A stretch of DNA of 64,000 bases from Escherichia phage LF82-9: the sequence record PV660452. One strand, 5' to 3'. The notes under the pieces were generated by a model that saw only the letters and a program-made list of their open reading frames with translations, did no database searches and was not told where the DNA came from. This document shows, piece after piece, positions 1,213-42,299 of this stretch. The position numbers were made by a program, and so were the translations under genes. Position 1 is the first letter of the stretch; every line of letters begins with the position of its first letter.

Positions 1213-2901
1213 TTATGAAACAGTCATTACAGTAAATCGTCCAACTTTACTCATCTGAAGATGTTGTCCATAACGTTGAGGGTCATGGTCTCGATGAGAG
1301 ATAATGAACACGTTAGTATTTTGTAAACTTCCAAGAATGGTATCTATAGCCTTAACAGCTTCAGAATCTACAGCGCCGTCAAAAACCTCATCAAGAATCA
1401 ACGTGTTGATTTTAACACCAGAAACTTTTTCAGCAATATCTCGCCATGTAAACAACAATGCGATATCGATACGTGCCTTTTCACCTTGACTAAATGAAGC
1501 ATAACTAAAATCTTCACGACCACGTGATTTTATAGATTCATTGAATTCTTCGTCAATAGAAAACACATAATCAGCTTCCATGATTTTAAGGTAATGGTTA
1601 ATCTGCTTGTTGAACAGAGGCACATATTTTTTAATGATAGCACCTTTAATACCAGAATCTTTTAACATATCTGTTATAATACCACGATGGTATTTTTCAA
1701 GAACGTTATCCGATTTTGTTTTAATGATTTTATCAAGTTCTTTTTGAAGCAAAGCTATCTCATCGGCATGGTCGATAAATTCCGCCGAGGCTTGTTCTAT
1801 TGCAGCTTTAACTTTCTTAGCTTTATCAATAGTGGCAATCATTGCTTGTTTCTTGGTACGAATATCAGATGCAAGGTCCTGTTTAGTCTTAACATTAGCT
1901 CTATATTCGTCCACTAGGACACTCAGATTATCTCTGTGACAGGTAAGTTGCTCGAATGAGTGATTACATTCATGAAGCTTATCGGTAATCTTAGAGACAA
2001 TAGGATCACCCTGGTGCAACTGTGATGCACAAGTAGGACATGTGCCACCGTCATGATACATCTTAATAACTTTGTTGTATGAGTCGATTTTAGATTTAAT
2101 CAAGAATGCTTCTTGTCCTATCTTGTTGAATGCCTCAGTAGGGTCTTCATCAAGAACGATATTAAGTAGTCGCTCATTAGCTTCTTCGATTTCCGCTTTT
2201 AATGAACGAGCTTCTTTGGCTAGGTCGTCATACATATTCTGTAGACGCGCTACATTATCACCAGATAATTTCTTTTGACGTTCGATATTCTCGTTATAAA
2301 TCTTAATTTGTTGGATAACACCATCTTTCTTAGCATCGAGAACTTGTCCCTGGGAATTAAGTTCTCGAACTTGAGACTTATTGATTTTATCCATTTCAGC
2401 GAGTGTGCCGACTTCTAAAAGGTCTTCGACAAGTTTTCTACGAGCAGGGGTGCTAAGAGCCATGAAAGGGGTATACCCTGCCGTCCCAAGCACAACGATC
2501 TGTTTAAAAGACGCGTATGACATTCCGATGCTACGTTCAAATTCTTCTTGGAAGTCACGACTGCTGGCAGATTCATCGAGACGAACACCGTCAACGGAGA
2601 TTTCGAAAATATTGGGCTTTTGGCCTCGTTTAATGAAGTATTTTTTATCATCGAATTCCATCCAAAGCTCAACTAAGAGCTCTTTCTTGTTCGTGCTATT
2701 AATGATTTGTCCTTTCTTAACATCACGAAATGGTTTACCGAAAAGTCCGAAAGTAATGGCTTCTAACATCGTAGATTTACCACCGCCATTTTTACCAGTG
2801 ATTAATGTCTTTTGGACTTTATCTAATTGGATATCAATAGGATTCCCACCTACCGACATGATGTTTTGATAACGAACACGATTTAATTTAAATGATTTCA
2901 T
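1213..2901 (-). CDS. 46: Recombination endonuclease subunit gp46 (Rad50/SbcC-like ATPase)
   Basis: 562 aa; N-terminus MKSFKLNRVRYQNIMSVG and Walker A GKNGGGKST match T4 gp46; coiled-coil middle; C-terminal FIISH motif. Confidence 0.92.
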   Translation of the reverse strand: MKSFKLNRVRYQNIMSVGGNPIDIQLDKVQKTLITGKNGGGKSTMLEAITFGLFGKPFRDVKKGQIINSTNKKELLVELWMEFDDKKYFIKRGQKPNIFEISVDGVRLDESASSRDFQEEFERSIGMSYASFKQIVVLGTAGYTPFMALSTPARRKLVEDLLEVGTLAEMDKINKSQVRELNSQGQVLDAKKDGVIQQIKIYNENIERQKKLSGDNVARLQNMYDDLAKEARSLKAEIEEANERLLNIVLDEDPTEAFNKIGQEAFLIKSKIDSYNKVIKMYHDGGTCPTCASQLHQGDPIVSKITDKLHECNHSFEQLTCHRDNLSVLVDEYRANVKTKQDLASDIRTKKQAMIATIDKAKKVKAAIEQASAEFIDHADEIALLQKELDKIIKTKSDNVLEKYHRGIITDMLKDSGIKGAIIKKYVPLFNKQINHYLKIMEADYVFSIDEEFNESIKSRGREDFSYASFSQGEKARIDIALLFTWRDIAEKVSGVKINTLILDEVFDGAVDSEAVKAIDTILGSLQNTNVFIISHRDHDPQRYGQHLQMSKVGRFTVMTVS

Positions 2902-3152
2902 ATGTATTCTCTTCGAATGAAGTCCTCTACATATTTTAACATGTCATCCCTATCAGCAAAATATTCATCTAGTTCTGCATACATAACAACACCTGGTGCG
3001 TACTCACAGGTAACATACATTGTTCCAAAGAAACGAGGAGTTGATTCCTCGTAATTCTCAGTCCATTCAACGATACCAATATAACCGTCACCAATACTAA
3101 ATTCATGACGATGGATTTCATAATCAGTCTTCGTCATTATACGCATCCTCAA
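2898..3152 (-). CDS. Hypothetical acidic protein (84 aa), translationally coupled between 47 and 46
   Basis: ORF track; 4-nt overlaps with both neighbours. Confidence 0.5.
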   Translation of the reverse strand: MRMRIMTKTDYEIHRHEFSIGDGYIGIVEWTENYEESTPRFFGTMYVTCEYAPGVVMYAELDEYFADRDDMLKYVEDFIRREYI

Positions 3153-3381
3153 TACACGCTTCAGCCATTTTAAGAATAGAGCCAGGAGTATCGTTGTCCA
3201 TTATATTAAAGCTAAATTCAACAGCCCAGTCGGTGCAGACATGAACTGCTTTAACTTCATTGCCTTCAACACGTAATGGCTCAATCCAATACTTGATAGT
3301 GTTCTCGAATCCATCATCATCTTTAACGTCTATTTCAACTTCAAGCCCGAGCCCAGCATTGTTAAATTCATCTAAAGTCAT
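3124..3381 (-). CDS. Hypothetical acidic protein (85 aa) between 47 and 46
   Basis: ORF track; start overlaps the gp47 stop. Confidence 0.5.
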   Translation of the reverse strand: MTLDEFNNAGLGLEVEIDVKDDDGFENTIKYWIEPLRVEGNEVKAVHVCTDWAVEFSFNIMDNDTPGSILKMAEACIEDAYNDED

Positions 3382-4397
3382 TGTGTTGCCTCAATATAAA
3401 GTTCGTTGGAATATTTAACCAGCGCTTCTCTGTCTTCGTTTGAGATATCTGGAATCGCGTCAATATATTCTTTAATGATATCTTGAAGTGATTTAATCTC
3501 GATTTCCTGGTCGTCATCAGATTCAACACTGTTATCAACTTTAGAAACCATACGAAGAGAGTGAACTACTTTTTCAAGTTCAGATTCAAATTTAGTCAAC
3601 TCTGAATCAATTTCTGATACTATAACACGTACGGCTAGATTAGTATAATCAGAATAATTGATTTTGCCTTTAAATGGATAAGTGATTCGTCGATGCCATG
3701 TTGTTTCATTAGGAATAAATTCCATACGTTCAACATCAGTGTCAAATACCCAGAATCCGCGAGGGTCGTTCTCGTCACCTGCAGTAAGGGTCCATGGTGT
3801 CCCAATATATTTGACGTTAGCAGCTTCAGAGATTGTGTGGAAGTGGCCAGACCAGACTTGTTTATAGGTCTTTAAGAAATCAGGTTCAAGCCCATGAGAC
3901 TTCATTCCTTTATAGAAATAAAAGCCGTTCAGTTCCCAGTGGCCAACACAATACGCGGCAGAAGAAGTCTTGATGTGCTCTAAGATTTCACCTGTATTTT
4001 CTTCACACATCCATGGAACGATATCAATCAGACATCCGTCAAAATCTACAGTAGTTGGATGCTCGTAAATAGTAAAGTTTTCAAATTGAGTCAACAATTC
4101 AGAAACAGTGTTAGGTGTTATTGTATTCTTAAACGCCATGTCATGGTTTCCTATCGTGACATGAACGTGAATGCCTGCTTTAGAAATCATATCAACGATT
4201 TCACGATTGAATTCCATTGTACGATGTGTTATTGCTTTACGGACGTCAAACCAATCACCGTACTGAATCCAAGTTTTAATCCCGTGTTTCTTAGAGTATT
4301 CAATTGCTTGACGAATACCATCACGTTGAATATCTTGGACCCATGGGTCGTCTTGTTTGACTCCGATATGGAAGTCGCCTAAGTGCAAAATTTTCAT
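3378..4397 (-). CDS. 47: Recombination endonuclease subunit gp47 (Mre11/SbcD-like nuclease)
   Basis: 339 aa, same length as T4 gp47; phosphoesterase motifs GDFH, GDWFD, GNHD, GHWE, GHFH. Confidence 0.92.
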   Translation of the reverse strand: MKILHLGDFHIGVKQDDPWVQDIQRDGIRQAIEYSKKHGIKTWIQYGDWFDVRKAITHRTMEFNREIVDMISKAGIHVHVTIGNHDMAFKNTITPNTVSELLTQFENFTIYEHPTTVDFDGCLIDIVPWMCEENTGEILEHIKTSSAAYCVGHWELNGFYFYKGMKSHGLEPDFLKTYKQVWSGHFHTISEAANVKYIGTPWTLTAGDENDPRGFWVFDTDVERMEFIPNETTWHRRITYPFKGKINYSDYTNLAVRVIVSEIDSELTKFESELEKVVHSLRMVSKVDNSVESDDDQEIEIKSLQDIIKEYIDAIPDISNEDREALVKYSNELYIEATQ

Positions 4398-4443
4398 ATT
4401 ATTTCCTCATTAGTTAATTCATTCTATCATCCGTTTATAAAGC

Positions 4444-5401: not shown

Positions 5402-5942
5402 ATAAAAAATCCAAACTAGGCGAATCGCTAACAACTTCCTTCTTTTCAGCCCCAGGAGCTTTATAAGCGGATTCTTCATAATGCGTCATTTTATCGTAGA
5501 TGTCTTGAATAAACGTTTCATCTACCAACGCTACCATATCATCGTCATGACTGTCGTAGACATTATGAACGAAGTAACTATATTTCTTTGCAACTTCCTT
5601 ACGTTCTTTTTTGATACGTTGGACAAAAGCATTAAAACAAGCTCGAGTTATGTATGCATGTGGGTTATTGTACTTAGTTTCGTCGAAATTATGAAGTCCC
5701 TTAATAGAGGCTTCAATCCCATCTGCAATCATCTCCTGCTTCCAAGACTGGGTATATCCTGAAAAGTTGAAACGTTTGGACAGGCCTTCGGCGATAAGCA
5801 TAATTGCTAAACCGATGGTATCATTCTGACGAATAATTTTGTTTGGGTCTTTATTATTTAAGAGCTCCTTTTTCCACTCGATTATAGCGGCGAGAAGCTC
5901 TTTATTATTCACATAGTTATTTTTAGGTTTTTGTTCAGTCAT
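5385..5942 (-). CDS. 55: Late-transcription sigma factor gp55
   Basis: 185 aa from ATG at 5942 (SD AGAGG); sequence ...[23 protein letters not shown]...[39 protein letters not shown] matches T4 gp55 from memory. Confidence 0.9.
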
Positions 5943-6837: not shown

Positions 6838-6868
6838 ATTATTTTCCTCTGTTATTTTATTATCCAAC

Positions 6869-6905
6869 GAGAGCATTATACTCTGCTCTCAAGAGTTTGT
6901 GCGTT
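6869..6905 (-). promoter_or_regulatory. Promoter-stem-loop cassette (TATAAT inside 7-bp stem GAGAGCA/TGCTCTC); near-identical copy at 36955-36998
   Basis: Minus-strand TATAAT; 44-nt segment repeated with one mismatch 30 kb away. Confidence 0.45.
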
Positions 6906-7143
6906 ATTTCGTGATAAGATAATGTAAATAGTTTGCTTGACGAACACTGATATCAACACCCATATCAAAGATACCTTTATAGAACGGGTATTTGTTTTCA
7001 GTAGAATCTAGACTAAAAGCCTTTCCGCCACAACTAACGGTAATAGCATCAGTTAAAGTGTCATATACAAACTTAATAGTTGAGCCGTTCACTACAACTT
7101 CAAGACGTTTTTTCGATGTAATAATGTCTAATTCTTGTTCCAT
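6904..7143 (-). CDS. Hypothetical protein (79 aa)
   Basis: ORF track. Confidence 0.45.
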   Translation of the reverse strand: MEQELDIITSKKRLEVVVNGSTIKFVYDTLTDAITVSCGGKAFSLDSTENKYPFYKGIFDMGVDISVRQANYLHYLITK

Positions 7144-13238: not shown

Positions 13239-13534
13239 TATTGTTCTACCCAGGCACAGGAAACTTCGAAATCAGGACCACCGTATTCCCAGTGATATTC
13301 ACCAACAGGAATCCAGTCACCGTGCTCGTTTTCTTCGTAGTCTTCAGGTTCAAGACCAACGAATCGCCATTGAACACCTATGATTCGATTACCCATTAAT
13401 ATACGAAATTCACCCCATGGATTATCGATAGCATATTGGATATCGTTCTTAGCACGAGAACACATTTCTTGATATAACAAAGCTTCTAATTCGCCCTGAT
13501 CATAAGGGCCCGGGAAAGTTAAATCAATACTCAT
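13238..13534 (-). CDS. Hypothetical protein (98 aa) bounded by 23-bp direct repeats
   Basis: ORF track; ATG overlaps the nrdC stop (ATGA); W/E/Y-rich. Confidence 0.5.
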   Translation of the reverse strand: MSIDLTFPGPYDQGELEALLYQEMCSRAKNDIQYAIDNPWGEFRILMGNRIIGVQWRFVGLEPEDYEENEHGDWIPVGEYHWEYGGPDFEVSCAWVEQ

Positions 13535-13552
13535 TTAAAATATTCTCGCAGT
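13530..13552. repeat. 23-bp direct repeat, copy 2 (overlaps the nrdC 3-prime end)
   Basis: Exact match to 13216-13238. Confidence 0.8.
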
Positions 13553-13794
13553 TGGTCAAATCCACCAATATGACTTCCATCAGGAGCAAATACTTGAGGC
13601 ATAGTCAATCCAACTTGTGATTCACGTCCTAGTTTATTCAGAAGCTCGTCAATTTTTTCTTCATCAAATACACCTTTCTCTGGCATAACATTAATGAATT
13701 CGAATGGCTGTTTCTTAACAGTCAGCAATCGTTTCGCATTATCACAATAAATGCATTTATGAATAGTAGAGTCATACCCGTACACTTTAAACAT
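13531..13794 (-). CDS. nrdC: Thioredoxin/glutaredoxin NrdC
   Basis: MFKVYGYDSTIHKCIYCDNAKRLL...MPQVFAPDGSHIGGFDQLREYFK matches T4 NrdC from memory; start set at the ATG giving 87 aa. Confidence 0.9.
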   Translation of the reverse strand: MFKVYGYDSTIHKCIYCDNAKRLLTVKKQPFEFINVMPEKGVFDEEKIDELLNKLGRESQVGLTMPQVFAPDGSHIGGFDQLREYFK

Positions 13795-14200
13795 TATTTT
13801 TCCTTTCATCGATTAAATATGCAATGCCAAATACAATACATGTAATAAAACCTGTGATACAGATAGAAACCAACAACACTGTACCAAAGAACCAAATCAA
13901 GTTATCTTTAGTAGTTTGTTTGATATCCATCTCACGAATTTCTATAGCTATCGTATCACCTTTATTCAGAAGCGTATAAAACGACGGTGATACACGCCTG
14001 TCAAAAACTCGTCCTTGCTCATCTTTATAGACTGCAATAAATTCTAATTTAGAATATTTTCCTGTAGATTGGCCTGAGATTAATTCCACTACCTCCACAG
14101 GAATTACTTTAGTTTCCATGTAAGTATTCTGACTGTTCCAAATGAATGGAATAACGGCAAAAACTAAAGCTGCGATAAAACAACGAAGGCTATATCTCAT
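13787..14200 (-). CDS. Hypothetical membrane protein (137 aa; N- and C-terminal hydrophobic segments)
   Basis: ORF track; hydrophobic stretches at both ends. Confidence 0.5.
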   Translation of the reverse strand: MRYSLRCFIAALVFAVIPFIWNSQNTYMETKVIPVEVVELISGQSTGKYSKLEFIAVYKDEQGRVFDRRVSPSFYTLLNKGDTIAIEIREMDIKQTTKDNLIWFFGTVLLVSICITGFITCIVFGIAYLIDERKNNV

Positions 14201-14505
14201 TATAATATTCTCTCAAATTTGTGGAAGCATTTACGGCATTTCAATTTCAAGTTATCAGTGGTCCAGTTAACCAGTTGGACTTGGATAGTTCCACATTCCG
14301 GGCATGGATGTTTTGCTGCTGATTTGGCAGCATTTTCACGTCGTTCAACCATTTTCATTATTTCGTTCCATGCTGGAGGAACGAACTCTTCTTCACCGTG
14401 GATTTTATCTCGCTGAACAAATTCAATCTTTGAACTATCGTCAATAAACTTAACCAAGCCATGATTAGTGCTCATATCAATATCCTCTAAAAGACGTAGT
14501 TTCAT
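14200..14505 (-). CDS. Hypothetical zinc-ribbon protein (101 aa)
   Basis: CPECG...CRKCFHKF four-cysteine motif at the C-terminus. Confidence 0.5.
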   Translation of the reverse strand: MKLRLLEDIDMSTNHGLVKFIDDSSKIEFVQRDKIHGEEEFVPPAWNEIMKMVERRENAAKSAAKHPCPECGTIQVQLVNWTTDNLKLKCRKCFHKFERIL

Positions 14506-15455
14506 TATAACACCTCAATGGCATTTCGTAAACCGTCCGCTTTCGCATTCAGAGCTTTTAACGATTTAGTCTGTTCTTTAATCTGGGCTTCGACTTCTTT
14601 CAGACGAGATTTGAGATATTCACGTTCTTCGCTCAAGTTGTCAACTTTTTCTACTTTAGGTTCTTTAATAGTCTTAAGTTTATACTCGTTAGGGTTCTTC
14701 AGCTTAATTCGGGTGCGAGAACTGTATAACATTGAACCGTTATCTTCGGATTCGTCGAACGTTTCAACAACATCCATAGTCTCTAACAATGTAATAAGTT
14801 TATAAGACAATGAACGAACGGTTTTGTTATGCTTATTAATTTCTTCAGCTTTCATGGTACCGAGATTACGTGAGTAGTAATAAGGAACCTGGATATCAAT
14901 TGATAATGATGCGTTACCATTACCGGTCGGTTTGAATACTGCAGTAACCCAATCTTTAACATGAACTTTATTTGTACGACCATCACCGCCCGTGAATAAT
15001 TTACGAGAATGTTTAAAAAGCATATTCACTTGGTTATTGAATTCACAAGCAAATTTATCAGCGAATTTAGTTTCAGGAATGGTAGATAACCAATCAGCCA
15101 AATGAGTCTTTTTAACATCATTAATAATAGTGAATTCAACCAAATCAGTTTTAGATGTCACAGATTTAATAAAGCTCGGTTTCATAAAGTTTTTAATGTT
15201 ATCGCGAGCTACAGTAGAAGATAATAAACGAGAACGTTTGAACCATTGAAGCAGTGTCCCTAATGAATGAGAATACGCATTCTGAGTATCTTTACAGATA
15301 TGATTTTCTTGACCTGTGTATGTACCAAAATCGCGAAGAATACCACTTACTACATCTCGGTGTGGAACATCAAATCCTAGTGCACCAACAGCGCGCTGGG
15401 CACGAACGTTAGCGATAAGACCGGCAAAGTATTCAATGTAATGTGAACGTGTCAT
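14505..15455 (-). CDS. Hypothetical protein with C-terminal coiled coil (316 aa); first of three similar-sized genes
   Basis: ORF track; C-terminal ~60 aa K/E/L heptad-like; own upstream promoter cassette. Confidence 0.6.
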   Translation of the reverse strand: MTRSHYIEYFAGLIANVRAQRAVGALGFDVPHRDVVSGILRDFGTYTGQENHICKDTQNAYSHSLGTLLQWFKRSRLLSSTVARDNIKNFMKPSFIKSVTSKTDLVEFTIINDVKKTHLADWLSTIPETKFADKFACEFNNQVNMLFKHSRKLFTGGDGRTNKVHVKDWVTAVFKPTGNGNASLSIDIQVPYYYSRNLGTMKAEEINKHNKTVRSLSYKLITLLETMDVVETFDESEDNGSMLYSSRTRIKLKNPNEYKLKTIKEPKVEKVDNLSEEREYLKSRLKEVEAQIKEQTKSLKALNAKADGLRNAIEVL

Positions 15456-15480
15456 AATATTTTCCTCTCGTTAAGATAGA

Positions 15481-15513
15481 TTTATTATACTCCAACCATC
15501 CTTGGTTGTAAAC
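15481..15513 (-). promoter_or_regulatory. Early-promoter cassette (TTTACA-N17-TATAAT with spacer hairpin); 30-bp exact repeat of 16501-16530
   Basis: Minus strand reads GTTTACAACCAAGGATGGTTGGAGTATAAT; CAACCA/TGGTTG inverted repeat. Confidence 0.6.
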
Positions 15514-15517
15514 CGTT

Positions 15518-16477
15518 TTATGATTTTAATGCATTCATTGCATTAAAAAGTTTAGAGTACTGCAACTGGAGATTCGTTACAACACTTTGAGCATCACGAA
15601 GCTTAGCTTGTGCTTTGTCAAGTTCAACGGACAGTTGGTCTGCAGTAGCCTTGATTTGGTTGTAATGATAATCTTCGGCCGGAAGAAGGTCATTAGAAAC
15701 ATTTAGTTTTACTGCCGACAGTTTGCACACATTTGGCAAACCTTTAAACATACCGGGTTGTGTCGGAGAATATGCGCTTAGAACCTCTGCATTACCGACT
15801 GGTGTTGCTGTAATATTGCCTTCAAACAATGCATTTTCCTTTTTAAGATTTTGATAGTATTCAGAGTCTTTGTGCCACCATGGCGCAGGAACCTTTTTAC
15901 CAATAGATACACGAGCCTGGATAGCGATATGGCCCTTATTCTTGATAGGGTCGATAATATTAAGCTCACGAGAATAAATTGCTTTAATTTGGTGAATATT
16001 ATCACCTAACACTTCCAACGCTTGGTGGAATACACGAGCAACGTTATCGTTCTTAGGTTTATATGTAAGAGTGAACTCGTTCTCACTGATAACCATGATT
16101 TCTAACTTATCGTAAGTATATTTCAAATGTTTCATGTTAATTGCTTGAGGACGAATACGAGAAGCAATGGCCATCAGATTGTTAAGGTTATTTCGGAACT
16201 GTTTAGCGAAATATTGTCCTTCACCGCCGATACAAAAATTACGAAGTTTCTGTTTGGCTAATAAACGGCTGAACTCACCATTTTTAATGAACTCTTTAAC
16301 GGGTGTGTTAGTAATGCATTCAAATTGAGTAAACATACGAGAATTAATCCCATAATATGAACAGATTTCCTCAATCTCTTCAGGAGTCTTTACAGGCATA
16401 CGGATAGGATTAGGTCCTGGAGTATATGCGTTCGAGGTAAATTCTTTGATAAGTTCTCTACGTGTAATAAAAGCCAT
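15518..16477 (-). CDS. Hypothetical protein with C-terminal coiled coil (319 aa); second of three
   Basis: ORF track; flanked by 30-bp direct repeats. Confidence 0.6.
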   Translation of the reverse strand: MAFITRRELIKEFTSNAYTPGPNPIRMPVKTPEEIEEICSYYGINSRMFTQFECITNTPVKEFIKNGEFSRLLAKQKLRNFCIGGEGQYFAKQFRNNLNNLMAIASRIRPQAINMKHLKYTYDKLEIMVISENEFTLTYKPKNDNVARVFHQALEVLGDNIHQIKAIYSRELNIIDPIKNKGHIAIQARVSIGKKVPAPWWHKDSEYYQNLKKENALFEGNITATPVGNAEVLSAYSPTQPGMFKGLPNVCKLSAVKLNVSNDLLPAEDYHYNQIKATADQLSVELDKAQAKLRDAQSVVTNLQLQYSKLFNAMNALKS

Positions 16478-16500
16478 TTTATATTCCTCATGTTGAAAAA

Positions 16501-16532
16501 TTTATTATACTCCAACCATCCTTGGTTGTACA
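16501..16532 (-). promoter_or_regulatory. Early-promoter cassette (TGTACA-N17-TATAAT); 30-bp exact repeat of 15481-15510
   Basis: Sequence identity with 15481-15510; sigma70-like spacing. Confidence 0.5.
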
Positions 16533-17528
16533 TCATTCCTTAAGAAGTTTTACTACTTGAATAAGATTAGCTCGTTCTGTTTTATTTTTACCGTTTAAGC
16601 CTGCTAATCGTGAGATTTCATCGTCAGTCTGTTGAATAGTTACATTAAGTTCGTTAATCAAAGCTTCAAAGTATTTGATTTGCTCAGCATGTTTTGATTC
16701 AAATTTCTGAACCGGAATAACGTCTTGGTTCAGTCCATCAATAAGGTCTTTAAGAGCATCTTCTTGGTTGATATCATATTCAACTTCCTTTATTTCTTCA
16801 ACGAGCTCGTCTTTATATCTAACGTCTTTTAGTCCTGGTGCTGGTCCTGAAATCTCTTCTTTAAGAGTACAAACATACCCAATACGGTATCCAATGCCGT
16901 CTCGCTTGATATCAACTTCGTCGATAAATCCACAATGTTTAAGTCCAGAGCCGATTATGTCAAAATATCCTTGACGACGTCCTTCAAACGTTACACGAAC
17001 TACTAAGACAGTTTTGCCACCGACCTTTTGAAGCTCACATTTATAAAAGTCCGTTGAACCTGAATAACGTGGATGAGTTTTAAAGTTCATCTGACGATCT
17101 AGGCCCATTTGTAAACGTGCTGTTACGGCCATAAAACGTGTTTGGTTCTCGTTAAGATGAGCAACAATCCATTTCAAAGGCATTTTACACTGTTCACGAC
17201 CGAACAAATCAGTACGTCCTAGATTACGCAGGATGTTGTTAGAGTTAATCATCGACAGAACGTTAAGTTTATTCAACGCGCTGAAGATTCCGTCAGCCAT
17301 TGATTTTCCATAACCTTTACACGCTTTAATAAGTGCTCGCGGCAGATTAGTATAGATTTCAGACGGCATATGAAAATCAAATTTACTAGTCAGTAATTGA
17401 TGAACTTGGATAGCAATTTGCTCATAATTAAGTGCTCTGCGATCGTTATGGTCTTTAAACCACACTTTAATCTGTGAAGCACATAAACCGTTAATTTCAT
17501 GTTTTACCGCATCAGATGTAATGCTCAT
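16533..17528 (-). CDS. Hypothetical protein with C-terminal coiled coil (331 aa); third of three
   Basis: ORF track; C-terminal heptad-like region. Confidence 0.6.
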   Translation of the reverse strand: MSITSDAVKHEINGLCASQIKVWFKDHNDRRALNYEQIAIQVHQLLTSKFDFHMPSEIYTNLPRALIKACKGYGKSMADGIFSALNKLNVLSMINSNNILRNLGRTDLFGREQCKMPLKWIVAHLNENQTRFMAVTARLQMGLDRQMNFKTHPRYSGSTDFYKCELQKVGGKTVLVVRVTFEGRRQGYFDIIGSGLKHCGFIDEVDIKRDGIGYRIGYVCTLKEEISGPAPGLKDVRYKDELVEEIKEVEYDINQEDALKDLIDGLNQDVIPVQKFESKHAEQIKYFEALINELNVTIQQTDDEISRLAGLNGKNKTERANLIQVVKLLKE

Positions 17529-17563
17529 AACTATTTCCTCAGATTGAATTGGAACTCAAAACC

Positions 17564-17590
17564 ATTATAACCCGTCCTTGGGTAAAGCGT
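17564..17590 (-). promoter_or_regulatory. Candidate middle-type promoter (MotA-box-like GCTTTA ~13 nt upstream of TATAAT)
   Basis: Minus strand AAACGCTTTACCCAAGGACGGGTTATAAT; spacing matches T4 middle promoters, box has one mismatch to TGCTT. Confidence 0.3.
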
Positions 17591-18118
17591 TTATGCGTGA
17601 ACCGTCTTTAAACGTTCTTCAAATTTCCGAAGAGTACTAATACGTTCTGCTTTCTGTTTTGTATAGTTTGCAATACGTTCTGAAGTGAGAGCGTATCGTT
17701 CGTTTACTGTTTCTTTCATGAAGTCAGGGATTTCACGAGAAGCTTTAATTTCATCAAACTTGTCGAGTACTGCCTGGTCTTCAGCGATTAAATTTTCGTA
17801 CATCTCGATATCTTTCTTGATAAACTCGATATCTTCCTGGGTTACTTTGGATAAACGAGACGCTTTATCCTTTTTGTACTGCTCGTTAGTTTCACGAGAC
17901 CAGAATAATGTACGTTTTTTGTTAGTGTTTTTGTAGACTTCCACAATTCCAACTGAATCGATGATAACAATCCAATTCCAGCGAGATTTGAAAATCTGAC
18001 CTCCGTCCACGGTAATCTCGTTATCATAAGCAACGTCATTAAAGAACTTGCTCTGTGCTTCAGATTTAAATTTACCGTCGTTATAATTTACCAGGTTGAA
18101 AATATCTTTAGCGTTCAT
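17591..18118 (-). CDS. Hypothetical protein (175 aa)
   Basis: ORF track; promoter cassette upstream. Confidence 0.5.
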   Translation of the reverse strand: MNAKDIFNLVNYNDGKFKSEAQSKFFNDVAYDNEITVDGGQIFKSRWNWIVIIDSVGIVEVYKNTNKKRTLFWSRETNEQYKKDKASRLSKVTQEDIEFIKKDIEMYENLIAEDQAVLDKFDEIKASREIPDFMKETVNERYALTSERIANYTKQKAERISTLRKFEERLKTVHA

Positions 18119-18145
18119 GTTTTACCTCCAGTAGTTGATAGGTCT

Positions 18146-18174
18146 ATAATAACACAACCATAGACCTTGTAAAC
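18146..18174 (-). promoter_or_regulatory. Early promoter with stem-loop (GTTTAC-N17-TATTAT; AGGTCTAT/ATAGACCT stem)
   Basis: Minus strand GTTTACAAGGTCTATGGTTGTGTTATTATAGACCTATCAAC. Confidence 0.6.
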
Positions 18175-18176
18175 AA

Positions 18177-18464
18177 CTAAAAGAAACTTTTTTCAGTATT
18201 TTTTCCACTGAACCAAACCGACTTCGGGGTTTTCTGTAACTTTTCAGATTTAAGTTTCTCTTCCTGTTCTTTCTTATATACACTCTTGTCGTACTGGAGC
18301 ATCTCTATGGCATTCTTTTGCAAACGATCTAAGGTAATTAAGGCTTTAGTTTTTCCTTTCAAGGAAGAGTCCTGGCGAACCTCCTCGCTATATTGCATTG
18401 TAGAACTAACCATACGATGAGCATAGAGTTCGACTGCGGCTTTAATTTTTTGCATAAAATCCAT
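18177..18464 (-). CDS. Hypothetical protein (95 aa), K/E-rich
   Basis: ATG at 18464 with SD AGAGGA. Confidence 0.5.
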   Translation of the reverse strand: MDFMQKIKAAVELYAHRMVSSTMQYSEEVRQDSSLKGKTKALITLDRLQKNAIEMLQYDKSVYKKEQEEKLKSEKLQKTPKSVWFSGKNTEKSFF

Positions 18465-18565
18465 AACATATCCTCTTTGATTTGTACATCATTATTTTTA
18501 AATATTTCTATGCCCTCAGTAGGTTCCTGGTGTCCTTCTTTGAGGTAAGCCATATGATTATTCAT
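18359..18565 (-). CDS. Questionable small ORF (68 aa) overlapping the previous gene
   Basis: ORF track only; 106-nt out-of-frame overlap and weak RBS. Confidence 0.2.
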   Translation of the reverse strand: MNNHMAYLKEGHQEPTEGIEIFKNNDVQIKEDMLWILCKKLKPQSNSMLIVWLVLQCNIARRFARTLP

Positions 18566-18602
18566 CTTTATGGCTTTTGTTACCTCAGGACTTCCTGTAA
18601 GC

Positions 18603-19583
18603 TTATTTCAGTAAAGTTACTTCAGAGATTTCCTCCCAACCATCTTTATCAGTTGAAATAAAATCTGCCACATAAAGAGCCGTACGTAATGATACATTGC
18701 GAAGACGAGACACGTTAGCCTTCATCCAGGACAATGCTTTGTACGTTTCAGCATTAGTCAAGCCACGTTTCTGCATCATGTCAGTAGATAATATTACATC
18801 TTCAACTCGAACCATAATCTCTTCATTAGAGTGTACTCCAAGGTCGAGATACACTGAACGAGATACTAAAGCTTGAAGGTGCGGAGCAAGTTTCGAACCG
18901 CGTTCTAACTCTTTATCGATATCAACGTTTGTAATGAAAACAATAGTACCTTCAAACTCAAATTCTTTATCGATACCCTTATCATCAAGATAAGATGATG
19001 CAGTGCTCCAGCAAACTTTGCGTTTATCATCAGTATCTAATGCTGCTTTAAGAAGGTTCAAGATATCTATATCCGAGAATACATCAACATCGTCGATTAA
19101 GAGAACGCTGTCTGCATCACGGTTGAGCCAAAGTTGTTCGTAAAGGCCAATACCAGAGATTTTACCATTAATGCTTTTGTATTTGATGAAACCATTATCA
19201 TTAGCATTATTAAGCGCTTTATCCAGAGAATACGTCTTACCAATACCAGCTGCACCTGAAATAATGAGTGAACGAATTTTGCCATCGATAATGCCATTCG
19301 TCATCATGTTCATTACTTTAAAGCGTTTGTTGATACGAGTTTTCATATCTTCAGTGCTTTCAACAACTGCAACTGGTGTCGTCTCAACTCCTTCCATTAC
19401 GATGTCTGATTTGAAGACCCATACTCCACGTTCAGAACCATCAATCATAACGAAAATTTTACCGTCACCTAAGTGGGAACATTCAGGATTAAGCTTTGCT
19501 GGGAACCATGTCTTTGTGGCAACATAAGAACCGGAGATTTCATTATTACGATAGATACCTTTTTTGATTTGAACGTTGAACAT
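18603..19583 (-). CDS. AAA+-type P-loop ATPase (326 aa) with a ~110 aa N-terminal domain
   Basis: Walker A GAAGIGKT, Walker B VLLIDDVD, sensor-1-like VFITN; ATG at 19583 with SD GGAG. Confidence 0.7.
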   Translation of the reverse strand: MFNVQIKKGIYRNNEISGSYVATKTWFPAKLNPECSHLGDGKIFVMIDGSERGVWVFKSDIVMEGVETTPVAVVESTEDMKTRINKRFKVMNMMTNGIIDGKIRSLIISGAAGIGKTYSLDKALNNANDNGFIKYKSINGKISGIGLYEQLWLNRDADSVLLIDDVDVFSDIDILNLLKAALDTDDKRKVCWSTASSYLDDKGIDKEFEFEGTIVFITNVDIDKELERGSKLAPHLQALVSRSVYLDLGVHSNEEIMVRVEDVILSTDMMQKRGLTNAETYKALSWMKANVSRLRNVSLRTALYVADFISTDKDGWEEISEVTLLK

Positions 19584-19622
19584 TTTATTCTCCAAATTTA
19601 CTCATTTCGTTTTGATAGGTCT

Positions 19623-19651
19623 ATAATAACATATCCTAAAAACATGTACAC
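19623..19651 (-). promoter_or_regulatory. Candidate early promoter (GTGTAC-N17-TATTAT)
   Basis: Sigma70-like spacing upstream of the ATPase gene; degenerate -35. Confidence 0.4.
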
Positions 19652-19679
19652 TACTTTTTAAAAATATTTTGACCCCCTA

Positions 19680-19697
19680 AAGGGCCCGAAGGCCCTT
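19680..19697 (-). terminator. Hairpin AAGGGCC-ttcg-GGCCCTT after the nucleotidyltransferase gene; U-run not immediately adjacent
   Basis: 7-bp perfect inverted repeat with TTCG loop just past the stop at 19699. Confidence 0.45.
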
Positions 19698-19698
19698 A

Positions 19699-20688
19699 TC
19701 ATTTATAGTATGAATTGTGGTTTTCTAAGTAGACTTGCTCAAGGAAGTCATCCCAGAAACTCATATCTACTTTTTGCTGCATACCATTCTTGGCAGCTTG
19801 TTCTGACGCATGTTCAACTTGGTCAACGATATCTTCTAGGAATTCTTGTACAGTTTTAAACGTATGTTTACCAAGCTTAACATCGAGAATAAATGGAGCA
19901 TCCTGAAGCGGGTAAACCAGGTCGCCGGTTTTGTAAATTTCTAAGAGCTGAAGTCCACCACGGCATGCGTGACTCAATGCTTTCCAATCAATGCCTTCAT
20001 TGGCTTCTGCCTTACGAGCACGTTCACCGTAGTTCTCTTCAAGTTTAACCAGGATGGCATTGAACTCTTTGTTAGTTAACGTATCTTGGAATTTACGGTC
20101 TAACAGACTATAGAATGTTTGCTTACCTGTTTTCTCGTTTTCAGTTTCAACCCATGAAGCAAATTCACCTATAGGCAAAACATTCTTCATATGTGATAAA
20201 CGAATTACTGCACCGTTATCAAAGTATTGTCCCCATTCATTAGAACGTTTAAGGGCTTGACGAAGAACAGCCAGCCGAGAACCCTTGACACCGTATTTAG
20301 AAGCTTGCTTACGGACATACCCTAAATAAGATTTCATGTTAGTGGTATAGAAACGAGACCTGTTATCTTGAATATACTTCCATACATCAGGCAAATCAGA
20401 TTTAACTACTAGACTTTGTGGAGTGTGAAGCATATCTAATGCGACGGTTTCACCATCCGCAGCTAGTTTAAAGAAATATTTGAGACTATATAACTCATGG
20501 TCTACGTCGTCTTTTGTGTTCTTAGAAGATGTGTTATTCGTGTTCTTGCTCATATGTTCTTTAACGTTACCGGTCAAGATATCACGAGCATGAGGGACAT
20601 AAATTTCTTTAAAATCGACGTCAGACTCAGGAGTAGACGTTCCATAAAGGTGGCTACCAAAGTAGCCTTTCATAATTGTTTTCATCAT
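19699..20688 (-). CDS. Pol-beta-superfamily nucleotidyltransferase-fold protein (329 aa)
   Basis: N-terminal motif YFGSHLYGTSTPESDVDF (GS-x10-DxD); ATG overlaps the upstream stop (ATGA). Confidence 0.65.
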   Translation of the reverse strand: MMKTIMKGYFGSHLYGTSTPESDVDFKEIYVPHARDILTGNVKEHMSKNTNNTSSKNTKDDVDHELYSLKYFFKLAADGETVALDMLHTPQSLVVKSDLPDVWKYIQDNRSRFYTTNMKSYLGYVRKQASKYGVKGSRLAVLRQALKRSNEWGQYFDNGAVIRLSHMKNVLPIGEFASWVETENEKTGKQTFYSLLDRKFQDTLTNKEFNAILVKLEENYGERARKAEANEGIDWKALSHACRGGLQLLEIYKTGDLVYPLQDAPFILDVKLGKHTFKTVQEFLEDIVDQVEHASEQAAKNGMQQKVDMSFWDDFLEQVYLENHNSYYK

Positions 20689-21885: not shown

Positions 21886-22021
21886 TTTACCATACTCGTT
21901 TCAATAAGATTCACTATGCCGTTTACCATGTTATAAGTAAACATCGGATAATTGTATTGTACTACAACATAAGCGATAAGCAAAAGTTTCATTTTGTTCT
22001 CCGTTCGTTTTGGTAGGACTA

Positions 22022-22050
22022 CTATAACATAGTCCTACCAAGATGTAAAC
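22022..22050 (-). promoter_or_regulatory. Early-promoter cassette with stem (GTTTAC; GGTAGGACTA/TAGTCCTACC)
   Basis: Minus-strand GTTTAC and 10-bp inverted repeat flanking the -10 region. Confidence 0.45.
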
Positions 22051-22283
22051 TACCGATTGTGTTTTAAATGTTGATAAAGTTCTTCAACTTGTTTAGGGTC
22101 CAAAACAATTAGGTCATTTTCTTGGCGAAGATAAAGCCATCCCTTATCCCCAGGACCATTTTTACAAAACATCGCCACCATATCATCATCTTCAGCGCTT
22201 TCAGGTAAAAGTTCAAGCACACCGTCTTCAGATTTTCCAGTATAATCGTAAAGCATAATATCCTCACATAATCTCGTTAACAT
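22050..22283 (-). CDS. Hypothetical acidic protein (77 aa)
   Basis: ORF track. Confidence 0.45.
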   Translation of the reverse strand: MLTRLCEDIMLYDYTGKSEDGVLELLPESAEDDDMVAMFCKNGPGDKGWLYLRQENDLIVLDPKQVEELYQHLKHNR

Positions 22284-22443: not shown

Positions 22444-22470
22444 AACGTTCTCCTCTAGTAAGTAAGGTCT

Positions 22471-22499
22471 ACTATAACACAACCTGAGGAGAAGTAAAC
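22471..22499 (-). promoter_or_regulatory. Early promoter (GTTTAC-N17-TATAGT) with CTCCTC/GAGGAG stem pairing RBS to spacer
   Basis: Minus strand GTTTACTTCTCCTCAGGTTGTGTTATAGTAGACCT. Confidence 0.55.
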
Positions 22500-22515
22500 T
22501 GCTAAATGCAAAAAA

Positions 22516-22537
22516 GCCCCAACCTTTCGGAAGGGGC
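22516..22537 (-). terminator. Intrinsic terminator (GCCCC...GGGGC stem plus U6); member of a 4-copy family
   Basis: Plus-strand AAAAAGCCCCAACCTTTCGGAAGGGGCTTT. Confidence 0.7.
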
Positions 22538-22542
22538 TTTGA

Positions 22543-23100: not shown

Positions 23101-23124
23101 ATATCCTCTCTTAGTTTACAAGGA

Positions 23125-23132
23125 TATTTATA
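23125..23132 (-). promoter_or_regulatory. T4-type late promoter TATAAATA
   Basis: Exact consensus on the minus strand ~25 nt upstream of the start at 23100. Confidence 0.5.
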
Positions 23133-23135
23133 CAA

Positions 23136-23160
23136 AAAGCCCCAACCTTTCGGAAGGGGC
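23136..23160 (-). terminator. Intrinsic terminator (same GCCCC/GGGGC family)
   Basis: AAAAAGCCCCAACCTTTCGGAAGGGGC; U-run on the minus-strand RNA. Confidence 0.7.
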
Positions 23161-23167
23161 TAGTAAA

Positions 23168-26695: not shown

Positions 26696-26723
26696 TTTGA
26701 TTTCTCCTCTAGTTGACAAGTCT

Positions 26724-26752
26724 ATAGTAACACAACTAGAGGAGAAGTAAAC
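26724..26752 (-). promoter_or_regulatory. Early promoter (GTTTAC-N17-TACTAT) inside a 13-bp stem that pairs the regB RBS with the spacer
   Basis: Inverted repeat TCTCCTCTAGTTG / CAACTAGAGGAGA flanking the -10. Confidence 0.6.
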
Positions 26753-27051
26753 TACTCTTTGAAAGGAATTAACTTTTTAACTGCTTTAGATACTTCGTCA
26801 CGAACCTGATGGAAGTTCTTGAGCTGTTCAAGGCGTTGTTCGTAATACGCAATCTCATCTTCTTCAAGACAATCGTCAGCGTCTTCTTTCAGATATGCCT
26901 TGTACTCATTAAAGAGGGCCCATAGGCGGTTCTCAAAGTCATCAAGGCTTTGAATTTTCTTGTGCTTCGGAACAAGGCCAAAAGGATTGCTTTCAGTTAT
27001 GCGTCTAGATGCTTCATAATGAGTTCCAAAGCCTGATAGGATTTGAGCCAT
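26752..27051 (-). CDS. Hypothetical protein (99 aa)
   Basis: ORF track. Confidence 0.5.
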
Positions 27052-32534: not shown

Positions 32535-32840
32535 TTATTTTCCTCGACATTCTTTAATGAAATTTTCTAGATTGGTAGATTCAATAGCTTTTTTACGAGC
32601 TTCTGCATGTTCTTCTTCAGACAATTTACATTTATAATTAACCCAGACGTTATGGTCAAAACTAGTCGTGGCATATAATAACAAAGCCCCGACGAATAAT
32701 AAAAATGGCGATAAGAATACAAAACCAGGAACACCATCCATATCGTAAGCCTTTTGTAATACTGCAACAGAAAGAGCTGCGTAAAAAAGTGATACAAATA
32801 TTGTTAAAAGACCAATTCGGTTGGTTTCTGTTAATTTCAT
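32535..32840 (-). CDS. Hypothetical membrane protein (101 aa) ending in ENFIKECRGK
   Basis: Two hydrophobic helices; shared C-terminal motif. Confidence 0.5.
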   Translation of the reverse strand: MKLTETNRIGLLTIFVSLFYAALSVAVLQKAYDMDGVPGFVFLSPFLLFVGALLLYATTSFDHNVWVNYKCKLSEEEHAEARKKAIESTNLENFIKECRGK

Positions 32841-32868
32841 AATATTCTCCTCATGTTTTAATAGGACT

Positions 32869-32898
32869 ACTATAACATAGTCCTATAATTGTGTAAAC
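32869..32898 (-). promoter_or_regulatory. Early-promoter cassette (GTTTAC; ATAGGACTA/TAGTCCTAT stem)
   Basis: Minus strand GTTTACACAATTATAGGACTATGTTATAGTAGTCCTATT. Confidence 0.5.
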
Positions 32899-32910
32899 AG
32901 TTTTGTGAAA

Positions 32911-33895: not shown

Positions 33896-34147
33896 TTAAA
33901 TTTCACGACATGCGATATTATATTCATCCCAGAGGTCATCATGTGAAGCCTCTACCAATGGAACGATTGTACCGTTTATGTCTTCATTATAAGGGCAAAT
34001 TGTACAGTGCGCATCTTCGAATCGGATGCCTTTGTGTTCAGATTTTTTATAACGCATATCGAATATCTTTGCAAACTTTTCACGAGTAATGGTTTTACCA
34101 ACCACTTTGGTTCCGATACTTTCGTAATAAATCATTGTGGACTCCAT
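33896..34147 (-). CDS. Hypothetical protein (83 aa)
   Basis: ORF track. Confidence 0.45.
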   Translation of the reverse strand: MESTMIYYESIGTKVVGKTITREKFAKIFDMRYKKSEHKGIRFEDAHCTICPYNEDINGTIVPLVEASHDDLWDEYNIACREI

Positions 34148-34163
34148 TTGTTTTGATAGGACT

Positions 34164-34193
34164 ACTATAACATAGCCCTATCTTGTTGTAAAC
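34164..34193 (-). promoter_or_regulatory. Early-promoter cassette (GTTTAC; ATAGGACTA / TAGCCCTAT stem)
   Basis: Near-duplicate of the cassette at 32869-32898. Confidence 0.5.
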
Positions 34194-34197
34194 TGTT

Positions 34198-34395
34198 TTA
34201 GCAAGAATAACTAGATGATACCCAGCCTTGAACAGTGATACTATTGTGGGATAATGAGATCGCGTCCTGGAGATTCAGACCTGCGTTATCTTCAATCCAT
34301 AATGTAACTTCTTCGCGTTCTTCTGTTGCAATTTGGAACAGGTTTTCCAGAGCAGCTACTGCCGTACGTACAGCACAATCTAATTCACGAGACAT
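34198..34395 (-). CDS. Hypothetical protein (65 aa)
   Basis: ORF track. Confidence 0.4.
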   Translation of the reverse strand: MSRELDCAVRTAVAALENLFQIATEEREEVTLWIEDNAGLNLQDAISLSHNSITVQGWVSSSYSC

Positions 34396-36930: not shown

Positions 36931-36971
36931 ATTATTACCTTTCAATTGGTGGTTTATTATCCAATGAGAGC

Positions 36972-37000
36972 ATTATACTCTGCTCTCAAGAGTTTGTAAA
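36972..37000 (-). promoter_or_regulatory. Early promoter (TTTACA-N17-TATAAT inside GAGAGCA/TGCTCTC stem); near-identical to 6869-6905
   Basis: Minus strand TTTACAAACTCTTGAGAGCAGAGTATAATGCTCTC. Confidence 0.55.
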
Positions 37001-37228
37001 TTATTTTTTAATCAAATTGACATAAAACTTGGCGTCTTCGGGGTGCATGCCTTCGCAGTATTCTTCAACCATGAAATTCTTAACAGCTTCATAAGGACCA
37101 CTCAGATTAAGCTCAGTTGTCCAAAACTTGGAATCTTGGACTGAATCGATACGAACTTCAGGATGACGATTGCGAATAACTTCTTCGGTGTATTCATAAT
37201 CAACGACATCAATACTAACTTTAGCCAT
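37001..37228 (-). CDS. Hypothetical protein (75 aa)
   Basis: ORF track. Confidence 0.45.
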   Translation of the reverse strand: MAKVSIDVVDYEYTEEVIRNRHPEVRIDSVQDSKFWTTELNLSGPYEAVKNFMVEEYCEGMHPEDAKFYVNLIKK

Positions 37229-37258
37229 TTTGTTTCTCCTCTTGATTTGATGTGATTA

Positions 37259-37287
37259 CTATAACATAAACGTACTTAGATGTAAAT
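37259..37287 (-). promoter_or_regulatory. Early promoter (TTTACA-N17-TATAGT)
   Basis: Minus strand TTTACATCTAAGTACGTTTATGTTATAGT. Confidence 0.5.
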
Positions 37288-37441
37288 TATTTCAACGTCA
37301 CCTTTAGCGGCTTTATAACCTTCAGCCCAAGATACAACAGAGTTTTTATCTGAGGATTCAAATTCAGGCATTGGACTTTCACCAATATTCACACAGTATG
37401 TTTCTTCATTTTCATCGAACCAAATAATTAAAGTAGTCATT
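37277..37441 (-). CDS. Hypothetical small protein (54 aa); below ORF-track cutoff
   Basis: Manual translation MTTLIIWFDENEETYCVNIGESPMPEFESSDKNSVVSW... Confidence 0.35.
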
Positions 37442-37470: not shown

Positions 37471-37499
37471 ATAGTATCACCATCCTTGGTGCTTGTACA
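37471..37499 (-). promoter_or_regulatory. Early promoter (TGTACA-N17-TACTAT)
   Basis: Minus strand TGTACAAGCACCAAGGATGGTGATACTATAGACTTATC. Confidence 0.45.
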
Positions 37500-37839: not shown

Positions 37840-37975
37840 AGTTTTGTGAAAAAATTTTTTAAAAAGTTTTAGGGAATTCTAGGGTCAGGAGGGACAATTA
37901 AAAGGTAGGATAATATATTATAAAGGGTATAAACTAAATGATGCCCAGAGAGGCCCGGAAAGGCCTAGATACCAA

Positions 37976-38000
37976 AAAGCCCCAACCTTTCGGCTGGGGC
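37976..38000 (-). terminator. Intrinsic terminator (GCCCC/GGGGC family) after the internal-protein gene
   Basis: AAAAGCCCCAACCTTTCGGCTGGGGC; U-run on the minus-strand RNA. Confidence 0.7.
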
Positions 38001-38008
38001 TAAGAATG

Positions 38009-38482: not shown

Positions 38483-38518
38483 CTTATTTCCTGTTTTAAT
38501 TCGTGGTTTTAATATACT

Positions 38519-38526
38519 TATTTATA
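38519..38526 (-). promoter_or_regulatory. T4-type late promoter TATAAATA
   Basis: Exact consensus on the minus strand ~37 nt upstream of the ATG at 38482. Confidence 0.5.
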
Positions 38527-38529
38527 CTA

Positions 38530-38556
38530 AAAAGCCCCAACCTTTCGGTCGGGGCT
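38530..38556 (-). terminator. Intrinsic terminator (GCCCC/GGGGC family)
   Basis: AAAAAGCCCCAACCTTTCGGTCGGGGC; U-run on the minus-strand RNA. Confidence 0.7.
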
Positions 38557-42222: not shown

Positions 42223-42256
42223 TTTATTTCCTTGAGGTTGTTTATTTTATAGGATG

Positions 42257-42286
42257 ATAGTAACACACCATCATCCTTATGTAAAC
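42257..42286 (-). promoter_or_regulatory. Early promoter (GTTTAC-N18-TACTAT) with AGGATGATG/CATCATCCT stem
   Basis: Minus strand GTTTACATAAGGATGATGGTGTGTTACTATCATCCTAT. Confidence 0.6.
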
Positions 42287-42299
42287 TGTTTTGTGAAAA

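Follow-up and report, generated by a model that had tools for sequence, protein, structure and literature searches.

We studied a stretch of 64,000 nucleotides from Escherichia phage LF82-9 (sequence record PV660452; hereafter the window), in which the gene nrdC.5 lies between two identical copies of a short direct repeat. Judged by sequence, the copies are PeSL (promoter-early stem-loop) elements, and the locus is a new case of a mechanism already known as PeSL-mediated modular shuffling. It is very probable that this pair of repeats lets an exchange delete nrdC.5 and that the deletion persists as a presence/absence polymorphism in the genus Mosigvirus. The window genome is that of a T4-like myovirus of this genus (RB69/JS09 group). 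Over positions 14300-17700 it shares 100% identity with Escherichia phage LF82-1 and the siblings of that phage, and 95-98% with many further Mosigviruses.

The window contains the sequence TTTATTATACTCCAACCATCCTTGGTTGTA at two places only, 15481-15510 and 16501-16530, with a spacing of 1020 bases; by chance no occurrence would be expected, even with three mismatches. The original prediction had described perfect direct repeats of 30 bp that bracket a single gene (15518..16477), each copy being a promoter with an internal hairpin. The exact matches 1020 bases apart bear out the repeats, and an A at both 15480 and 16500 extends the identity by one base towards low coordinates, which makes the repeat in fact 31 nt long. 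The bracketed gene also stands: nrdC.5, encoding 319 amino acids on the minus strand, is the sole long open reading frame (ORF) between the copies. Because all the local genes are on the minus strand, the repeat is to be read as its reverse complement, TACAACCAAGGATGGTTGGAGTATAATAAAT. Together with its 5' neighbours, the downstream copy matches the sigma-70 consensus as TTTACA-17-TATAAT (11/12) and the upstream copy as TGTACA-17-TATAAT (10/12). These are the top two minus-strand sigma-70 consensus matches in 13400-19800, and both agree with the PeSL promoter consensus of T4/PST, TTTACW-N17-TAYWAT. Along with a predicted fold of -6.9 kcal/mol, the matches fit the promoter and hairpin expected of each copy. 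Read directly, the upstream junction consists of the nrdC.6 stop codon, 2 nt, the repeat, GAGGAA and ATG, and the downstream junction of the nrdC.5 stop codon, 7 nt, the repeat, GAGAGGA and ATG. An A/T-rich tract precedes the -35 box of the downstream copy (AAAATCATAAAACGG) and of the upstream copy (CTTCTTAAGGAATGA); both tracts overlap coding 3' ends in an AT-rich genome. No Rfam family matched the repeat, and the sole hit, SAM_alpha inside the gene, was at chance level (E = 0.76).

Natural isolates were found in which exactly this unit is missing. IMG/VR gave only four loci with the nrdC.3 protein and four with the 27-mer described below, and the 155 matching Mosigvirus records of the GenBank phage collection were therefore used as the comparison set. 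In phages FL31 and JM10, the region corresponding to 14300-17700 of the window takes up 2381 bases where the window has 3401, and is thus exactly 1020 shorter; the left flank aligns up to the repeat, the right flank beyond it, and a single copy stands between them. A junction-spanning query of 291 bp matched this single-copy junction end to end in 21 of the 155 records. The junction sequence was read in 12 genomes (FL31, JM10, G2469, AV115, AV109, p000v, G2285, PTE-Eco05, AV110, F2, JM17 and ESCO47), which originate from Denmark, Germany, China, France and elsewhere and from at least six independent studies. All 12 consist of the nrdC.6 stop codon, ATGATG, TACAACCAAGGATGGTTGGAGTATAAT and the nrdC.3 leader with no other scar, the ESCO47 junction having two substitutions in the core. 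In most genomes of the genus the exact repeat is this core of 27 nt, from TACAACC to TATAAT. The remaining hybrid copy was of the upstream type on its 5' side and of the downstream type on its 3' side in every one of the 12, and the crossover therefore lies inside the 27-nt core. Thus the repeat copies coincide with the breakpoints of the indel, and related genomes that lack exactly the 1020-bp unit and keep one hybrid copy do exist, as had been proposed for checking.

The cassette protein was found in 132 records, at one place in each, and 131 records cover at least 80% of a 3.4-kb locus query in a single place. No tandem duplication of the 1020-bp unit was seen among the 132. The original prediction had spoken of gain or loss of the cassette by recombination between the repeats. 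Of these, loss is documented by the 21 records; duplication is not, the gene being present once in each record that carries it, and so loss alone is documented.

The repeat itself varies little across the genus. The four bases past TATAAT are in most genomes AAAT at the upstream copy and GAAT or CTTT at the downstream copy; the repeat reaches 31 nt in the window because AAAT is present at both. The AAAT at the downstream copy of the window would be explained by a single G-to-A change or by conversion over a very short tract. The spacing between the copies ranges from 990 to 1023 bp and is set by small indels in nrdC.5. At the downstream junction pairwise diversity is about fivefold lower in the core (0.011) than in the flanks (0.05-0.06); at the upstream junction core and flanks alike are conserved. 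Rare variants of the core, T to C in the stem and G to A at the stem base, were found in ATK47, SF and one IMG/VR contig, in a single copy each. Among these few variants there was no sign of concerted evolution of the two copies. Since core variants hit one copy at a time, the identity of the copies seems to reflect the conservation of a functional element and not homogenisation, at a level of variation too low to decide between the two.

The spacer of each promoter holds CAACCA-AGGA-TGGTTG, a stem of 6 bp with a 4-nt AGGA loop (predicted folding energy -6.9 kcal/mol, z = -2.6). At the upstream copy it begins 4 nt past the nrdC.6 stop codon. As it is sited upstream of the predicted start site, the hairpin would be present only in transcripts arriving from upstream. 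The window has four occurrences of the motif CCAAGGAYGG, where 0.08 would be expected: in the two repeat copies, at 17572-17581 and at 37480-37489. The T4-like junctions have the same loop on other stems, CCACA-AGGA-TGTGG between nrdC.5 and nrdC.4 and AGCCA-AGGA-TGGCT between nrdC.4 and nrdC.3. Eight related elements, the four window sites and the T4-like junctions among them, were aligned by hand on the invariant loop. Paired cells amounted to 87.5% in this alignment, while shuffles gave 68% and slid partners no more than 44%, and two-sided changes were present in 4 of the 6 stem pairs. This covariation supports a selected hairpin, short of proof. The element at the nrdC.8/nrdC.6 junction, whose equivalent in SA79RD is annotated as a T4 middle promoter, resembles the middle-promoter variant termed 'PmSL'.

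The PeSL was defined as a sigma-70-like early promoter with a stem-loop that mostly lies between, or overlaps, the -35 and -10 boxes (Arbiol et al. 2010, PMC2839356). PeSLs are found between the ORFs of hyperplastic regions and flank ORFs that differ among close relatives; deletion between flanking PeSLs has been described and tested in RB49/phi1, where the intervening ORF can be excised as a mini-circle (PMC2839356). Work on T4/PST extended the class, with the consensus given above, and added middle-promoter variants (Comeau et al. 2014, PMC4122927). The repeats of the window share with this class the order of stop codon, early promoter, stem-loop in the -35/-10 spacer, Shine-Dalgarno sequence and start codon, among nonessential early ORFs. 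As with ORF192 of RB49 and its absence from phi1, two copies flank one ORF, relatives differ by that ORF and one hybrid copy is left. The locus is part of the nrdC-nrdC.11 block of small nonessential early genes, the content of which differs among Mosigvirus, moha, RB69 and the T4-likes, as is characteristic of the hyperplastic regions in which PeSLs lie. However, the shared identity is compact and exact here (27-31 nt), and not a diffuse similarity over about 100 bp. The present case is also a polymorphism seen at population scale, the unit being absent from 21 records and present in 132, in a genus and at a locus outside both papers: nrdC and RB69 are absent from the two (PMC2839356, PMC4122927), and a literature search on PeSL together with Mosigvirus found nothing.

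The pair at nrdC.5 is not the only occurrence of this PeSL. In LF82-3, a near-identical sibling, a third copy is located at the dexA/dexA.1 junction about 41 kb away (1035-1075 of the retrieved stretch) and reads GTTTACAACCAAGGATGGTTGGAGTATAAT and then CTTTCTATCTTAAC. The dexA-junction PeSL was found in at least 133 records. It shares 30 nt exactly with the downstream copy of the window. In TH58, NHEP11, SF and RB69, where the nrdC.3 leader is of the 'CTTT' allele, this leader has about 50 nt in common with the dexA-junction copy. The latter tract, common to the two places, suggests ectopic exchange between distant PeSL copies.

The protein encoded by the cassette matches Pfam family DUF7235 (PF23882) almost from end to end (residues 15-318 of 319) with 399.2 bits against a cut-off of 30, and the NrdC.5 protein of T4-likes does so with 417.8 bits, both at E = 1e-119 or better. 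The two proteins also match PHROG 2351, and in direct comparison they are 26% identical over 81% of length (E = 2e-11). A profile search returned the Mosigvirus and T4-like clades only, plus one outlying protein of a different Pfam family (PF26897). An AlphaFold2 model of the cassette protein (28-sequence alignment) had a mean confidence (predicted local distance difference test, pLDDT) of 40.8 and was confident only in the C-terminal helix 266-318. Paralogy of nrdC.5 with nrdC.3/4 or nrdC.6 was considered and rejected, no similarity being detected by BLASTP or by profile-profile hhalign (probabilities <5%); among these genes a relationship emerged solely between nrdC.3 and T4 nrdC.4. In RB69, nrdC.5 (2771-3673 of the retrieved stretch) encodes 300 amino acids that diverge after about residue 245; its C-terminus is probably frameshifted or rearranged in the reference strain.

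In T4, nrdC.5 has been connected with Dsr1, a SIR2-type defence of the host. A T4 clone with a deletion that includes nrdC.5 lost infection of E. coli ECOR17, deletion of dsr1 from ECOR17 restored infection by this clone, and infection of MG1655 carrying dsr1 was regained on expression of the T4 gene (Srikant et al. 2022, PMC9391042). The cassette protein resembles T4 NrdC.5 in its full-length DUF7235 match and in its syntenic slot downstream of nrdC.6, but it is only 26% identical, and the counteraction of Dsr1 is known from the T4 gene alone. From this identity we infer a possible anti-Dsr1 role for nrdC.5 of Mosigvirus. The experimental evolution of T4 in the same study is also alike in that nonessential genes including nrdC.5 were lost between short direct repeats, and that host range was altered through the loss of a counter-defence gene. 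It differs in the nature of the deletions, which in the laboratory typically used microhomologies of 6-10 bp, removed 0.7-6 kb and were unique to each clone (PMC9391042), whereas here a regulatory element of 27-31 nt is used and the same precise allele is present in many natural isolates.

Taken together, these observations would be explained as follows. Each copy, placed after the stop codon of one gene and ahead of the ribosome-binding site of the following one, may act as an early promoter, and nrdC.5 and nrdC.3 would each get a promoter of their own. The hairpin would lie in the 3' tail of transcripts that read through from upstream, and is probably an attenuator or a stabiliser. Because the copies are identical, direct and only 1020 bp apart, an exchange between them, by homologous recombination or by replication slippage, would remove exactly one copy together with nrdC.5; the route, and any circular intermediate, are inferred. 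The hybrid promoter left behind, with the -35 box of the upstream copy and the leader of the downstream copy, would be a working one and would drive nrdC.3 in the cassette-less phages. The deletion has occurred in nature and persists as a polymorphism. Since nrdC.5 is a dispensable accessory gene whose T4 homologue counteracts Dsr1, its retention or loss plausibly depends on the hosts that the phage encounters. A further step is speculative and, in our estimate, rather unlikely: the pair could be a selected 'quick-release' mount, from which nrdC.5 is continually shed as a 1-kb circle with its own promoter, packaged, and re-inserted at any copy of the same PeSL (dexA/dexA.1 or a co-infecting phage), so that the anti-Dsr1 gene becomes a shared module of the population. 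The AGGA-loop hairpin might then be the start site for a structure-specific nuclease, for example endonuclease VII.

The direction of the change follows from the outgroups. The T4-like loci have the order nrdC.6, nrdC.5, nrdC.4, nrdC.3; because a DUF7235 homologue thus occupies the same position in them, the cassette-less state is read as a deletion. As judged from this synteny, nrdC.5 at this position predates the split of Mosigvirus and Tequatrovirus, and its presence is ancestral. In the converse account, the cassette-less state would be the original one in Mosigvirus, and nrdC.5 would have been inserted in the manner of a Campbell-type integration from a PeSL mini-circle or another phage, thereby creating the repeat. 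The PeSL model is explicitly reversible, flanking direct repeats are the automatic product of a Campbell-type insertion at a PeSL, and insertions do happen there: moha has, between nrdC.6 and nrdC.5 (2299-2600 of the retrieved stretch), an extra ORF for a predicted membrane protein of 66 amino acids, after which the last ~25 nt of nrdC.5 and the PeSL are repeated. This insertion marks a second shuffling event, at the upstream PeSL. (The nrdC.6 of moha is only 86% identical to that of the window.) Gain is nevertheless very unlikely, given the homologue already present between nrdC.6 and nrdC.3/4 in the outgroups and the presence of the gene in 132 of about 153 records, the most divergent sampled ones included. 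Regain by ordinary flank recombination during co-infection is possible in individual lineages. As to the number of losses, cassette-less genomes are interleaved with cassette-bearing ones in the neighbour-joining trees of nrdC.6 and nrdC.3. The distance between G2469 and TP6 is 0.4% in nrdC.6, for instance, that between AV110 and moha is 0.3% in nrdC.3, and F2 falls together with TH58 and phi25-307 in both trees. Beside the core, the cassette-less genomes have four alleles (CTTT, GAAT, GAAC and CATT). Interleaving and alleles would arise either from repeated loss or from one loss that was spread by flank recombination or ectopic conversion.

The manner of the exchange and the origin of the repeats admit other explanations. 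Deletion might have proceeded by replication slippage, a copy-choice misalignment in which the hairpin possibly stalls the fork, without a recombinase and without a circular product. This we regard as a real possibility, yet not the likelier one. The classical rII deletions of T4 have short direct repeats at their ends, and the 27-31 nt available here fall short of the roughly 50 bp of homology that T4 requires for efficient recombination. A palindromic core lies inside each copy, and T4 readily deletes and amplifies between homologies of 2-10 bp (Srikant et al. 2022, PMC9391042). On the other hand, the two routes give the same junction, so that the sequence does not discriminate between them, and comparable pairs of PeSLs in RB49 were found to yield circular products (Arbiol et al. 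2010, PMC2839356). The repeats could also be what is left of a gene unit of about 1 kb that was duplicated in tandem long ago, with its regulatory parts kept alike by selection. The genes nrdC.3, nrdC.5 and nrdC.6 all encode 316-331 amino acids with a C-terminal coiled coil and are preceded by the same hairpin family; the units are of similar size (1013, 1020 and 1058 bp) with related junction elements; and nrdC.4 and nrdC.3 of T4 are true distant paralogues (25% identity, BLASTP E = 6e-7, hhalign probability 85%, PHROG 1435). We consider such a duplication unlikely, however, as nrdC.5 has no detectable similarity to nrdC.3/4 or nrdC.6, the same PeSL is present at the unrelated dexA/dexA.1 junction, about 41 kb away, and a duplication would account for the origin of the repeats but not for the deletion polymorphism. 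It is hardly credible that the cassette-less state is an assembly collapse at the repeat, or that the cassette is a transposon or homing unit with target-site duplications. Repeats can confuse assemblers, and T4-like genomes carry homing endonuclease genes. But a repeat of 27-31 nt cannot make an assembler drop 1 kb of unique sequence, and the flanking single-nucleotide polymorphisms differ among the 12 junctions read. The only protein encoded in the unit is of the DUF7235 family and gave no match to a nuclease, transposase or integrase, and the repeat is a promoter found at other junctions, too long at 27-31 nt for a target-site duplication.

Several observations weigh against deletion of nrdC.5 by exchange between two functional PeSLs. 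The total of promoter-like sites in 13400-19800, an AT-rich region, is not above the shuffled expectation; for this reason the promoter assignment is a consensus match and not a proof of activity. The stem is weak, at -6.9 kcal/mol, and lacks an adjacent U-run, by which it is not a canonical intrinsic terminator. A terminator scan of the region did not call the hairpin either, and on both grounds a strong terminator is unlikely there. In this respect the 6-bp, A/T-containing stem-loop differs from that of RB49/phi1, which is a strong G/C-rich terminator. The covariation set is small, was registered by hand and was picked since the motif was visible, and three natural variants weaken the stem in an uncompensated way. 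The flank trees do not separate several losses from the spread of one loss by flank recombination. Finally, the transfer of function is uncertain because of the low identity between the cassette protein and T4 NrdC.5.

The features of the locus and the related hairpin elements are given in Table 1. Every gene at the locus is on the minus strand, and the order of transcription, in RB69 nomenclature, is nrdC.8, nrdC.6, nrdC.5, nrdC.3, nrdC.2, nrdC.7 and nrdC.

Table 1. Positions of the repeat copies, the bracketed gene, its neighbours and related elements in the window.
Feature	Position	Strand	Remarks
nrdC.3 homologue	14505..15455	minus	316 amino acids, PHROG 1435; flank kept 3' of the deletion
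Shine-Dalgarno sequence of nrdC.3, GAGAGGA	15463..15469	minus	read directly; downstream of the downstream repeat copy
Downstream repeat copy, nrdC.5/nrdC.3 junction	15480..15510	minus	predicted promoter 15484-15512; hairpin CAACCAAGGATGGTTG at 15493-15508
1020-bp unit (one repeat copy, nrdC.5 and leader)	15511..16530	.	register arbitrary within the repeat
nrdC.5, bracketed cassette gene	15518..16477	minus	319 amino acids; sole long ORF between the copies
Shine-Dalgarno sequence of nrdC.5, GAGGAA	16484..16489	minus	read directly; downstream of the upstream repeat copy
Upstream repeat copy, nrdC.6/nrdC.5 junction	16500..16530	minus	predicted promoter 16504-16532; hairpin 16513-16528
nrdC.6 homologue	16533..17528	minus	331 amino acids, PHROG 2257; flank kept 5' of the deletion; stop codon 16533-16535
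Related element, nrdC.8/nrdC.6 junction	17564..17590	minus	hairpin ACCCAAGGACGGGT and TATAAT behind MotA-box-like GCTTTA, no -35 hexamer; outside the exact repeat
nrdC.8	17591-18118	minus	
Fourth member of the hairpin family	37471-37499	minus	TGTACA-N17-TACTAT with CACCA-AGGA-TGGTG in the spacer; upstream of a gene starting at ~37440

Annotation of this region in public records calls for some caution. The label 'thioredoxin' on all the nrdC.x genes in many GenBank genomes of Mosigvirus and Tequatrovirus (13531-19595 of the window) is a spill-over from nrdC. The ATK47 record annotates an 11-nt 'possible StbAB binding site' inside nrdC.6 (5568-5578 of its retrieved stretch). T4-likes have both nrdC.4 and nrdC.3 (2409-3440 and 3495-4424 of the retrieved stretch), and Mosigviruses have one only. 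In the phage collection, T4-type NrdC.5 is present in 496 records and T4-type NrdC.3 in only 362, from which the nrdC block is plastic in Tequatrovirus too.

The window also holds other families of repeated intergenic elements. Further promoter-plus-hairpin repeats are located at 21989-22062, 32837-32910, 34132-34205, 37226-37288 and 42245-42298, and at 18129-18193, 19606-19670, 22465-22511 and 26707-26771; in one example, GGTAGGACTA...TAGTCCTACC surrounds the -10 box. Distances of 1.3-3.7 kb separate several of them, so that these may represent additional PeSL pairs, with genes between them that could be lost. A G/C-rich hairpin with a T-run (AGCCCC...GGGGCTTTTT) is present in four copies on the minus strand, at 22495-22538, 23118-23161, 37958-38001 and 38513-38556, and looks like a repeated intrinsic terminator. 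In addition, two direct repeats of 78 nt, 30 kb apart (6843-6920 and 36940-37017), are 81% identical and have the hairpin GAGAGCATTATACTCTGCTCTC around a -10-like box.

The model of PeSL shuffling has rested mainly on a few phage pairs, and the nrdC.5 locus gives it a population-scale natural example with base-exact junctions. As the deleted gene is in the family of T4 nrdC.5, which is reported to counteract Dsr1, the locus links a concrete mechanism of recombination to host-range variation. If the Mosigvirus protein has the role of its T4 homologue, the polymorphism would be a host-dependent trade-off on a counter-defence gene, and host-range variation through nrdC.5 would bear on the choice of therapeutic coliphages.

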